DNA from: Candidatus Saccharimonadota bacterium
GTDB taxonomy: Bacteria; Patescibacteriota; Gracilibacteria; BD1-5; UBA6164
NCBI GenBank assembly: GCA_963677765.1
Contig: OY782392.1
Span: 630,001-662,000, forward strand
Length of the DNA stretch: 32,000 nt
Reading direction: 5' to 3'
Shown here: positions 2,019 through 31,758 of the stretch, in pieces
How positions within the stretch are numbered: position 1 is the stretch's first letter
How the letters are laid out: every line of letters begins with the position of its first letter
Notes under the pieces: generated by a model
Told to the model about the DNA's origin: nothing
The model's input: the letters and a program-made list of their open reading frames with translations, nothing else
Databases searched by the model: none
Program-made: the position numbers and the translations under genes

Positions 2019-2459
2019 ATGAAAAATATAGTTAATAATAAATATTTTAAGATAATGATTTTTGTATTATTATGATTATTTATACTTAGAGAATCATATG
2101 CGGTTTATATAGATATGTATAACTTTAAACAATTAGAAAAAGCTAAACTATATTTAGAAACAATAGATAAAAATACAAAAGATTTTTTTAACTTAAAACA
2201 ATTTAATGAAAGATATAATGCTTGAATTAAGCCTATTAAAAATTGTTATGATGTTAGTAATTATAATTGAAAATATCCATATGTATTTTGATTTAAATTA
2301 GAGTCATTAATATATATATATATATATATAAAAAGTTATTTTGTATATCCTGGTTATGATGCTCCTATACAAATCTTTTGTGGCTGAGGATCAGAATGTA
2401 CAGAGGATGTAAATAGAAAAATATTTGAAAGAGTTATATCAAATCCATGTGAAGAATAA
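2019..2459 (+). CDS. small exported Cys-containing protein, paralog 3 of 3 (146 aa), intact
   Basis: ATG 2019 to TAA 2457-2459. Positions 2059-2148 are identical to 872-961 of paralog 1. The in-frame TA tract encodes IYIYIYI. C-terminal ERVISNPCEE matches paralog 1. Confidence 0.75.
2310..2330. repeat. (AT/TA) dinucleotide tract, about 10.5 units, inside paralog 3, in frame
   Basis: Read directly: tta-atatatatatatatatatata-aaaag. Confidence 0.95.
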
Positions 2460-5032: not shown

Positions 5033-5773
5033 ATGATTGAAATAAAAGATTTAAAAGTTTGAATTTGAGAGAAAGAAATACTTAGATGAGTTAGTATGAG
5101 TTTTGAAAAATGAAAAAACTATTGTTTATTATGAAAAAACTGAAGTTGAAAATCGACTATTTCATCTTTTTTGATGTGAAATCCAAAATATGAATTGATA
5201 TCAGGTGAAATAAGTATAGATTGAGATGATCTTTTGGAAATGGAGCCAGAAGAAAGATCTAAAGCAGGATTATTTTTGTCTTTTCAAAATGTACCTGAAA
5301 TAAAATGAATTAAACTTTGAGAGTATTTAAGAATTATTACTAATATTTCATTAAAAAATAAAGATAATACTGCGAAAGATTTATCTCCATTTATTTTTAA
5401 AAGATATATAAAACAATACCTAAATGATTTAAATATTGATGAATCATTCTTGGACAGAGATCTAAATGTATGATTTTCATGATGAGAAAAAAGAAAAATA
5501 GAAATATTGCAAATGAAATTAATTTGACCTAAATATATAATTTTAGATGAAATTGATTCATGACTTGATTTGGATGCATTTAGAAGTGTAGCTTCAATGT
5601 TAAAAGAATTAAGTAATGAAAATAATTCTTTAATTATTATAACTCATTATTTTAAAATTCTTGAATATGTTGATGTAGATACGGTTTATGTTATGAAAAA
5701 TTGAGAAATAGTTAAATATTGAGATAAAGAATTAGCATCATATATAAGTAATAATTGATTTGAAGAGTTTTAA
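5033..5773 (+). CDS. sufC: Fe-S cluster assembly ATPase SufC
   Basis: Walker A GKNGSGKST is spelled TGA AAA AAC TGA AGT TGA AAA TCG ACT at 5132-5158. ABC signature FSGGEKRK. Walker B ILDEIDSGLD. By hand count about 19 of 21 Gly codons are TGA. Confidence 0.95.
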
Positions 5774-28508: not shown

Positions 28509-28841
28509 ATGAATACTATTTGAAGGCTAATGCCTAATAAATTTTATGAATATTTGAATTCATGAAAATTTACTTTAATTGACTTTAGAACTCCTGAAGA
28601 AAAAATATATTATTGATATATAGAGAATACAGATTTATTTATTGATGTATATAGTAAAGATATAGTTGAGAAAATATTATCTTTAGATAAAAATAAATCT
28701 TATTTAATATATTGTTTTCATTGAAATAGGACACAGGGAGTTTTGGATTTTATGGATAAAAATTGATTTAAAGAAGTTTATGATTTAATTTGATGAATAG
28801 AATATTGGGAAAATTATAATTATAAACTTAAAAAAGATTAA
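28509..28841 (+). CDS. single-domain rhodanese-like sulfurtransferase
   Basis: LIDFRTPEE and the active-site loop CFHGNRTQ. 110 aa. 7 of 8 Gly codons are TGA. Confidence 0.8.
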
Positions 28842-28890
28842 AACTTGATTTTACTTAAAAACATATATAATTAATTAGTCAAACTAAAAA

Positions 28891-28896
28891 AGGAGG
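28891..28896 (+). promoter_or_regulatory. Shine-Dalgarno sequence AGGAGG, 6 nt upstream of GTG 28903
   Basis: aaaaAGGAGGctgacaGTG. GGAGG-type motifs are absent ahead of nearly all other starts I inspected. The exception is AAGGAG ahead of the gene starting at 31758. Confidence 0.6.
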
Positions 28897-28902
28897 CTGA
28901 CA

Positions 28903-29382
28903 GTGTATAATATTATCACCTTGGACCATAGTACAGCAGGTATTCCTGAAGATGGCTTTGGTGTCGATGATAATGGTAATTTTTTTGTTGCCATATCAAA
29001 AATGGGCTTTATCAAAAATAAGGATTCTTTAATTTTTTTATTTGTAAATGACAAAATTGTTGTTACATATGCTAAAATTAAAAAATCAAGAACATATAAA
29101 GCTGATAAATTTCGTTCTATAAAAAAACAAGCTCAGGATTCATATGATATTATGGTTATCGATAGGATTATTGAATATCATTTGATGTTTCTGGGTAGGT
29201 CTAAAAGAAGAAAAAATATTGATGTTTACCTTTCGCGTGTACATGTGAATAGGGTAATTTCAAATATTCTTTCCCGTGTTTATAAGCATGTGGGGGCTTA
29301 TTATGACAAAAATAGTGTAAATTTAAAAAGACATAAGTATCAGGATTTTTATCTGAGGGTAAAAGATGCTGGATTTATGTGA
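28903..29382 (+). CDS. compositionally atypical hypothetical protein (159 aa): GTG start, no internal TGA, terminates on TGA (a stop only in the standard code)
   Basis: Intact in the standard-code track. SD-led. Uses CGT, GGC, GGG, CTG, GAC and ACC codons that are rare in neighbouring genes. The TGA at 29380-29382 lies 6 nt before a strong terminator hairpin. No family recognised. Confidence 0.6.
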   Translation: MYNIITLDHSTAGIPEDGFGVDDNGNFFVAISKMGFIKNKDSLIFLFVNDKIVVTYAKIKKSRTYKADKFRSIKKQAQDSYDIMVIDRIIEYHLMFLGRSKRRKNIDVYLSRVHVNRVISNILSRVYKHVGAYYDKNSVNLKRHKYQDFYLRVKDAGFM

Positions 29383-29388
29383 AAAATA

Positions 29389-29420
29389 AAAGACAAAAAG
29401 TTTTTAAACTTTTTGTCTTT
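29389..29420. terminator. bidirectional terminator shared by the atypical ORF and dnaK
   Basis: aaagacaaaaagt / actttttgtcttt 13-bp hairpin with T-runs on both strands. Confidence 0.8.
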
Positions 29421-29429
29421 TTTATTTAA

Positions 29430-31331
<1,902 letters not shown>

Positions 31332-31430: not shown

Positions 31431-31457
31431 TTAGCACTTTTTTATATAGAGTGCTAA
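31431..31457. promoter_or_regulatory. CIRCE operator (HrcA binding site)
   Basis: TTAGCACTT-N9-GAGTGCTAA, one mismatch from the consensus TTAGCACTC-N9-GAGTGCTAA. Lies about 100 nt upstream of the dnaK start. Confidence 0.85.
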
Positions 31458-31512: not shown

Positions 31513-31758
31513 TTAAGCTACTTTTTTACATTCATTTTTTTTCTTTTCTTGTAAATAAGTACTTATTTTAGATTGTATTTTGGACTTTAAATTACATTTT
31601 TTCTTTTTTAACTCACTTGTATTTGAGTATTGTCCTTTTTCATCAATTTCGTTTGAAACTGATTTAAACTCATCTACCATTGCTGCAAAGTCATCATCTT
31701 GTTGTGTTAACTCCTCGATAATATCTGCATTTTCTTTTAAGAAATCTGACTTTCTCAT
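31513..31758 (-). CDS. small coiled-coil protein, DUF465/YdcH-like (81 aa)
   Basis: Intact track ORF. The pattern ...DDFAAMVDEFKSVSNEIDE...ELKKKKCNLKSKI resembles YdcH-family proteins. AAGGAG lies 7 nt upstream of the ATG. Confidence 0.55.
   Translation of the reverse strand: MRKSDFLKENADIIEELTQQDDDFAAMVDEFKSVSNEIDEKGQYSNTSELKKKKCNLKSKIQSKISTYLQEKKKNECKKVA

Follow-up and report, generated by a model that had tools for sequence, protein, structure and literature searches.

How does a gene end when its last codon is one that its host reads as an amino acid? The question is raised by an open reading frame (ORF) at positions 28903–29382 of a 32,000-nucleotide (nt) stretch of DNA, here called the window, which covers positions 630,001–662,000 of contig OY782392.1 (assembly GCA_963677765.1) and to whose positions all coordinates below refer. 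The ORF closes on TGA, which encodes glycine in this genome, and its transcript, read in the code of the host, appears to contain no valid stop. Comparative evidence indicates that the gene is native, has been inherited vertically and belongs to a small family of orphans, which changes quickly and evolves as if it were still under the standard code inside genomes that use another one.

The window belongs to a Gracilibacteria-type genome that uses genetic code 25, in which TGA specifies glycine. Its GC content is 23.5%, and ORFs of at least 100 amino acids (aa) add up to 39.8 kb if TAA and TAG alone count as stops, compared with 7.8 kb in code 11. Code 25, rather than code 4, is identified by the interchange of TGA and GGN at conserved glycine columns of ordinary orthologues and by the DnaK N-terminus, which reads M-TGA-KII-TGA-IDLGTT. 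When the ordinary genes of the window are aligned with their orthologues on the related contig L001, TGA occupies 132 conserved glycine columns in both, 59 columns switch, and 37 have GGN in both, 30 of which are contributed by dnaK; flips between TGA and GGN affect 26–42% of the conserved glycine columns in ordinary orthologues. TGA accounts for 74% of the glycine codons in the bulk genes of the window (418 TGA to 149 GGN) and more generally for 40–75%, making it the commonest glycine codon, and a tRNA-Gly(UCA) must therefore be abundant and efficient.

The ORF has a 159-codon conserved body (28903–29379, + strand; homologues P0001–P0020), which starts with GTG, 6 nt downstream of a Shine-Dalgarno (SD) sequence, AGGAGG, read at 28891–28896 (+), and which contains neither TGA nor TGG. 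Its eight glycine codons are GGT (four), GGC (two), GGA and GGG (one each), whereas the rhodanese-like gene immediately upstream (28509–28841, +; PF00581 in the related contig L005), which has no SD, uses TGA for seven of eight. CGT occurs three times in the ORF and three times in 7890 bulk codons, GC content at third codon positions (GC3) is 0.22 as against 0.10 in bulk genes, and when glycine is left out the codon usage of the ORF remains the most atypical of 38 window genes (mean log-likelihood −1.03, compared with −0.43 to −0.79 for the others). Protein homology stops exactly at the terminal TGA (29380–29382, +). After a gap of 5 nt comes the stem of a bidirectional intrinsic terminator common to the ORF and the convergent dnaK (29388–29430, both strands), detected by terminator scan and RNA folding; its 15-bp stem and 4-nt loop at 29388–29421 are flanked by a T-tract and an A-tract (0.0 such structures expected in shuffled sequence), and it precedes the stop codon of dnaK (29430–31331, −; PF00012 in orthologous loci). 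Most of these features had been noticed in a first-pass annotation of the DNA, and its account of the SD-led GTG start, the rarity of SD sites elsewhere (an SD-like site precedes only 9 of the 131 genes counted in the window and related loci), the TGA-free glycine codons, the use of CGT with higher G/C, and the TGA end before a shared terminator was borne out throughout, as was its expectation of aberrant composition.

Upstream of the SD lies a promoter-like region (28845–28882, +), with TTGATT at 28845–28850, TATAAT at 28866–28871 and a TAGTCAA motif at 28876–28882. A simple promoter scan did not list it because its spacer is 15 nt, and an alignment of 12 upstream regions revealed that TTGATT-N15/16-TATA(A/T)T-N4-TAGTCAA is kept in main-type orthologues, even at ~40% protein identity.

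Downstream of the TGA, the frame continues in code 25 for 378 codons (29383–30519, +), through the terminator and antisense to dnaK, to a TAA at 30517–30519. The first-pass annotation was right that the frame stays open, and it does so farther than had been traced, but the length of the antisense opening is without significance and was rejected as a signal. Stops number 5 in this frame over 29430–30519, compared with 41 and 58 in the other two frames; they can arise there only at DnaK Tyr codons that follow a codon ending in T or C, and the opening is thus a composition artefact of the scarcity of Tyr in DnaK. The frame past the transcript end is probably never translated. The artefact would nevertheless mislead code-25 gene callers, which fuse the ORF to 378 antisense dnaK codons. 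Public protein collections hold two read-through artefacts of the same gene in the style of code 4, P0001 (215 aa) and P0002 (178 aa), in which the W that follows ...DAGFM or ...DAGFI is the terminal TGA.

A gene of such aberrant composition (atypical codon usage and GC3 in the window copy) could be a recent horizontal acquisition, dead on arrival, as the first-pass annotation had allowed, or the TGA could be an assembly or sequencing artefact. Both ideas can be regarded as refuted. TGA stands at the same position in L005, L001/L002, L003/L004 and L014, other members having TAA at the homologous end, and because the gene, its SD and its TGA recur in independent assemblies (L005 from ENA, L001 and L002 from NCBI, L003 and L004 from JGI), the TGA is real and not a sequencing error. 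The order UPF0020 methyltransferase, rhodanese, ORF and dnaK (−) is kept in L001, L002 and L005. Between the window and L001 the ORF protein is 69% identical, with 57% identical codons among identical residues, and both values fall within the range of the neighbouring genes, which argues for vertical descent in the clade of the window. Conservation at the protein level stands alongside abundant synonymous change, a pattern that points to purifying selection on the family, and a model of the protein built with AlphaFold2 is highly confident.

The wider distribution of the family agrees with native status. When 1.84 billion representative proteins were searched exhaustively by profile, no more than 15 clusters emerged. 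The ORF has homologues at 92%, 69% and 54% identity; additional paralogues were not found in the window. Every member contig examined is low in GC and chromosomal-looking, with housekeeping neighbours, and reads TGA as sense wherever informative neighbours are present. Besides the context of the window, a second one recurs, in which family genes lie between diaminopimelate (DAP) decarboxylase and uracil-DNA glycosylase (UDG). No family homologues were found in standard-code genomes, and the family appears confined, as far as it has been sampled, to Gracilibacteria-type contigs in which TGA is a sense codon.

Avoidance of TGA extends to the whole family. Its 18 genes contain 178 internal GGN codons and no internal TGA, and their conserved glycine columns show many synonymous switches among GGT, GGA, GGC and GGG; between the window and L001, all eight conserved glycine columns of the ORF have GGN in both. 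The family genes of a second clade (L009–L011) have ordinary codon usage outside glycine and still lack TGA, and the avoidance is therefore specific and not something left over from a foreign composition. Every main-type family gene is preceded by an SD-like site, and weaker sites (AGGG, GAGG or AGAG) stand before the paralogues designated ‘a’. TGG is absent from 17 of the 18 genes and occurs once in L015a, a scarcity of possible relevance given the suggestion that tRNA(UCA) might also read UGG by wobble (PMC8629427). Together these patterns suggest that selection keeps the family UGA-free and its start SD-led, unlike the bulk of the genome.

Expression level offers a more conventional explanation, in which a gene highly expressed from a strong promoter and an SD avoids UGA as a slow or error-prone codon and its terminal TGA is a tolerated TAA-to-TGA mutation. 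TGA is indeed low among the glycine codons of rplA (1 of 18), rpsT (0 of 4), rplT (1 of 5) and dnaK (18 of 57), the first-pass annotation having cautioned that rpsT and rplA avoid it, and none of the nine SD-led genes among the 131 (three family members and six other small orphans) has an internal TGA. The caution does not carry over to the rest of the ORF, however. Its non-glycine codon usage is the poorest fit to bulk genes and fits the highly expressed set no better; that set has few or none of the codons AGG, CGT, CTG and GGC, all of which the ORF contains (AGG four times and CGT three). GGA makes up 29% of the glycine codons in the family compared with 9% in highly expressed genes, and highly expressed genes here, like bulk genes, lack an SD. 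Nor would rare neutral accidents be expected to leave a terminal TGA in 10 of the 18 genes, spread over at least three lineages, when ordinary genes never have one. Expression bias combined with accident is accordingly a decidedly unlikely account.

The ends of the family genes are as distinctive as their bodies. At homologous C-termini, the last codon is TGA in ten of the 18 and TAA in eight (e.g., ...SELLLT-TGA in L009b, ...SQLLLI-TAA in L011a and ...DQILLK-TAA in L008), and TGA at a conserved C-terminus was never seen in the ~25 ordinary orthologue families checked. In the clade formed by the window, L005, L001, L003 and L014, the TGA end persists among members as little as 45% identical, although synonymous sites are saturated and AT pressure is strong. 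Orthologues ending on TAA or TAG had been proposed beforehand as evidence against a gene without a stop; the eight TAA ends are of this kind, but the four closest orthologue lineages retain TGA.

Interchange of TGA and TAA would be most simply explained if the two were equivalent, with UGA acting as a genuine context- or factor-dependent stop in this mRNA and the protein released at ...DAGFM, triggered by the proximity of the 3' end or hairpin or by an unrecognised release activity. The exact end of homology at the TGA agrees with this account, as do the tails beyond it, which are not conserved beyond what terminator composition imposes, and a UGA-free body would be expected if UGA were unusable as sense in this mRNA. 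Position-dependent reading of a codon as stop or sense is known in ciliates such as Condylostoma, and also in the trypanosomatid Blastocrithidia; here, UGA would have to serve bulk genes as a sense codon and yet terminate translation at the 3' end of this mRNA. That mechanism is eukaryotic, however, and depends on eRF1 and the poly(A) region, and we know of no bacterial mechanism for position-dependent termination at UGA. If only 3'-proximal UGAs terminated, avoidance of internal UGA would be needless, and the codon usage implies an abundant, efficient tRNA-Gly(UCA). Furthermore, a genome survey reported prfB to be absent from all BD1-5 genomes (PMC6851277). The context-dependent stop offered by the first-pass annotation thus accounts for the interchange of end codons and conflicts with the reported lack of RF2, and its chance of being correct is slim. 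A selenocysteine UGA with a bacterial selenocysteine insertion sequence was also considered and rejected, as the hairpins are terminators that also serve the convergent gene, with AT-rich or GC-rich stems that vary in sequence between orthologues and are followed by T-tracts; no protein homology extends past the UGA, and eight members have TAA at the orthologous position.

The terminator stem starts 3–12 nt past the TGA, or overlaps it, in TGA-ended genes, as compared with 12–47 nt in TAA-ended genes, although these comparisons are not phylogenetically independent, and the tight linkage between TGA and terminator appears real but modest. Eight of the ten TGA-ended genes reach the T-tract without an in-frame TAA or TAG. 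Since prfB is reported absent and TGA is the commonest glycine codon, the terminal UGA is most likely decoded as glycine. We tentatively favour, at somewhat less than even confidence, a reading in which ribosomes decode this UGA and run off the terminated mRNA, so that output is gated by ribosome rescue. The ribosome would enter a terminator-encoded tail (GKIKDKKFLNFLSFLF...) and, on transcripts whose 3' ends lie at the predicted terminator, would arrive there without meeting a stop codon. The product would then depend on non-stop ribosome rescue, either by trans-translation, with tagging and proteolysis, or by an alternative release pathway, and lineages would switch from gated to ordinary termination, or back, by a single transition between TGA and TAA. 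A body devoid of UGA, for its part, may allow the gene to be translated even if the decoding of UGA is limiting or has been subverted, as on depletion of charged tRNA-Gly(UCA) or during takeover by phages that avoid TGA. Production from non-stop transcripts had been among the options of the first-pass annotation, and it is the one most consistent with the anatomy, from which we infer it.

Regulation of this kind has precedents. In Bacillus subtilis, an internal terminator of brfA generates a non-stop mRNA, the product of which is SsrA-tagged and accumulates only when trans-translation fails (PMC6881298). The terminal UGA and adjoining terminator could form a comparable posttranscriptional gate, similar to that internal terminator or to the cleaved arfA mRNA of E. 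coli. As in those genes, the terminator lies inside the code-25 ORF ahead of any stop, and terminated transcripts would be non-stop; judged by predicted ends, a terminator before the first in-frame stop is found in the window (TGA at 29380, terminator at 29388–29430, stop at 30517) and in eight of ten TGA-ended genes, and not in L016 or L017. The differences are substantial. The family protein has no sequence or size similarity to BrfA or ArfA (159 aa compared with about 55–70 aa), both of which recruit RF2, reported absent in BD1-5; its frame continues only because a reassigned stop codon is sense; and about half of the family ends on TAA. With its predicted 159-aa globular beta-plus-alpha fold and no matches to these families, the gene may resemble ArfA/BrfA in regulation but is not a member. 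The attenuation leaders trpL and hisL and the in-frame UGA of prfB may offer a second parallel, in that a decoding-sensor codon lies just upstream of a terminator hairpin and the rest of the gene avoids that codon. The family ORF, in contrast, encodes a full-length conserved protein, and in the window no gene follows on the same strand, only the convergent dnaK.

Several observations weigh against rescue gating. Eight members end normally on TAA, so that gating is unnecessary for the function of the family, and the run-off of ribosomes is not universal even among TGA-ended genes, since L016 and L017 have an in-frame TAA inside the transcript, 4 codons past the TGA in the terminator loop and 2 codons past it, respectively. 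The next code-25 stop lies 2, 4, 10, 12, 14, 15, 17, 37, 53 and 378 codons beyond the TGA in the ten genes, mostly past the terminator, and the median extension of ~14 codons matches the ~13.5 expected for random AT-rich sequence; selection for a lack of downstream stops is therefore unsupported. A non-stop design would work with any sense codon and does not by itself explain the UGA-free body, and ribosomal protein genes, rplA included, likewise avoid TGA. Within the window, finally, no tRNA or transfer-messenger RNA (tmRNA) genes were found, and no gene for SmpB, ArfB or tRNA-Gly(UCA).

The manner in which the family evolves bears on the principal rival of rescue gating. In the second synteny context, comparison of L009 (7267–8488) with L010 revealed a hypervariable island between DAP decarboxylase (94% aa identity) and UDG (91%), where two tandem family paralogues are only 49% and 34% identical and nucleotide identity falls from ~92% to ~55% exactly across the family genes. 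Such evolution appears to be of the hypervariable, conflict type, and it is consistent with allele replacement, as would be expected if the family were a code-agnostic cassette drawn from, or exchanged with, a pool of phages or mobile elements in which in-frame TGA is avoided and TGA, TAA and TAG all serve as stops, the terminal TGA of the family being a legacy stop with a tolerated short tail and no regulatory meaning. A pool of this type has been described: 34 of 38 predicted Gracilibacteria phages lacked in-frame TGA, and their TGA stops were backed by nearby stops (Liu et al., 2023; PMC10746230). The cassette explanation, the main rival, accommodates the hypervariability, the orphan status and the backup stops of L016 and L017. 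The random-looking extension lengths suit it as well, as does the fact that no gene that is SD-led and TGA-free, whether of the family or not, has a Pfam match, and that such orphans have their own promoter and terminator.

The family resembles these code-11-compatible phages of Gracilibacteria and Absconditabacteria (Liu et al., 2023, mBio) in its lack of in-frame TGA, its TGA at gene ends and its further stops downstream. It differs in that the family gene is chromosomal, syntenic and vertically inherited, in two stable contexts and, in the clade of the window, with neighbour-like divergence, and its next stops lie 2–378 codons away, random-like and mostly beyond the terminator. Searches for a phage or plasmid source, which the first-pass annotation had envisaged, came back empty, with no homologues in IMG/VR, INPHARED, PLSDB or PHROGs and none at the sequence level in BFVD, and prophages of these bacteria are reported to use code 25. 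The share of TGA ends (56%) and their retention in a deep clade under AT pressure also exceed what a neutral stop would give, TAG being used by only 5 of 40 stops in the window. A cassette origin is accordingly possible but on the doubtful side.

The signals of the gene could also be addressed to another cell. If it were expressed in a standard-code partner, by the ribosomes of the bacterium that the Gracilibacterium lives on, as the genes of T-DNA carry expression signals of their recipient, then the SD, the sigma-70-like promoter, the UGA-free body, the equivalence of TGA and TAA, and the arms-race-like hypervariability would all follow from a single assumption. The locus, however, gives no evidence of a DNA or RNA delivery system or of transfer signals, the family lacks homologues in standard-code genomes, the excess and retention of TGA under AT pressure would be unexplained, and the prior probability is very low. 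We consider this explanation highly improbable.

The protein itself provides only leads to its function. The AlphaFold2 model, built from 16 sequences (pLDDT 94, pTM 0.88), comprises an N-terminal five-strand beta unit and a helical C-terminal half and is consistent with a real folded protein. The invariant or near-invariant residues D8, E16, D17, Y127, N140 and K142 suggest a putative active site. Sequence searches of Pfam, PHROGs, NCBIfam, PADLOC and PDB with the ORF protein and 16 members yielded nothing credible, and a faint match to SIR2_2 (E 0.32) was discarded. Some resemblance is seen to the RNB catalytic domain, which is present in RNase II, RNase R and Rrp44. A gap-free alignment places the family motif T-[IL]-D8-x7-E16-D17 on RNB motif I of E. 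coli RNase II (T199-I-D201...D209-D210), with D8, E16 and D17 on D201, D209 and D210, and the VAIS that follows on VAIAD; a low-confidence model, from which the lead first arose, matches ~20 RNB structures in PDB weakly (E ~1e-2 to ~1), and the best BFVD match of the high-confidence model is RRP44-like (E 2e-3, TM-score 0.56 normalised to the query). On the other hand, the model with pLDDT 94 has no PDB match (best E 0.59), and the structural matches are weak and inconsistent between the two models. The hhalign comparison with RNase II is not significant (E 0.59), none of 16 members matches Pfam RNB (PF00773) even at E ≤ 10, and a PDB profile search returned no RNB protein. The family protein has 159 residues compared with ~330 in the RNB domain, has I, V, T or K in place of D207, and lacks the catalytic residues of the C-terminal part. 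An RNase-like activity is thus putative, a lead only.

The family is not alone in its avoidance of TGA. Next to dnaK, on its upstream side (31513–31758, −), is a second gene that is SD-led (AAAGGAGT) and free of TGA, encoding an 81-aa orphan with no Pfam match, its own terminator, a TAA end and the second most atypical codon usage in the window; its orthologues are found at L001 12645–12881 and L005 7851–8096. More generally, code-25 contigs contain TGA-free, monocistronic, Pfam-less genes that are mostly SD-led and apparently fast-evolving, e.g., L009 2704–3090, 12839–13246 and 14896–15723; L001 14316–14966; and L011 9839–10267 and 13747–14067. Each is served by a canonical promoter of the TTGACA type and by a terminator of its own, and outside the family studied here they end on TAA or TAG.

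Other observations concern the surroundings of the ORF. In L005, whose family gene is the 92% orthologue, the terminator is followed (5145–5770) by a ~100-nt duplicate of the dnaK 3' end and a ~500-bp insertion before the real dnaK, the insertion containing a 119-aa ORF in code 25, which has a terminator of its own. The upstream region of dnaK contains a CIRCE-like inverted repeat (31431–31457), TTAGCACTT-N9-GAGTGCTAA; it resembles the CIRCE consensus and would presumably imply heat-shock control of the HrcA type. Three close paralogous small genes with near-identical N-termini (MKEKIKNIVKNRYF...) and hydrophobic segments lie at 820–1269, 1279–1641 and 2019–2459 (+). The possibility that the ORF overlaps a functional RNA, with constrained synonymous sites, was rejected, since synonymous divergence is normal and Rfam gave no match.

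Reassignment of a stop codon is usually treated as genome-wide and absolute. Here, in a bacterium with UGA as a glycine codon, a chromosomal gene that has been passed down vertically appears to have been under prolonged selection of the sort expected if UGA had remained a stop, and no description of chromosomal genes with such a UGA-free body and UGA end was found in the literature searched. It is conceivable, if unlikely, that code-25 Gracilibacteria keep a distinct class of chromosomal genes, SD-led, devoid of sense UGA and capable of ending on UGA, which is read, or has to stay readable, under a different rule and in which the terminal UGA is a functional signal. Such a UGA could be a sentinel of UGA decoding, responsive to the charging of tRNA-Gly(UCA) or to a code switch imposed by phages, or it could be a true stop in a cell without RF2. 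The wider class of SD-led, TGA-free, hypervariable orphans may mark genes engaged in conflict, through interaction with phages or hosts, in an uncultured phylum. The locus makes it testable whether UGA decoding in bacteria that lack RF2 is ever conditional, and whether a reassigned stop codon can serve, through non-stop gating, as a one-nucleotide regulatory switch.

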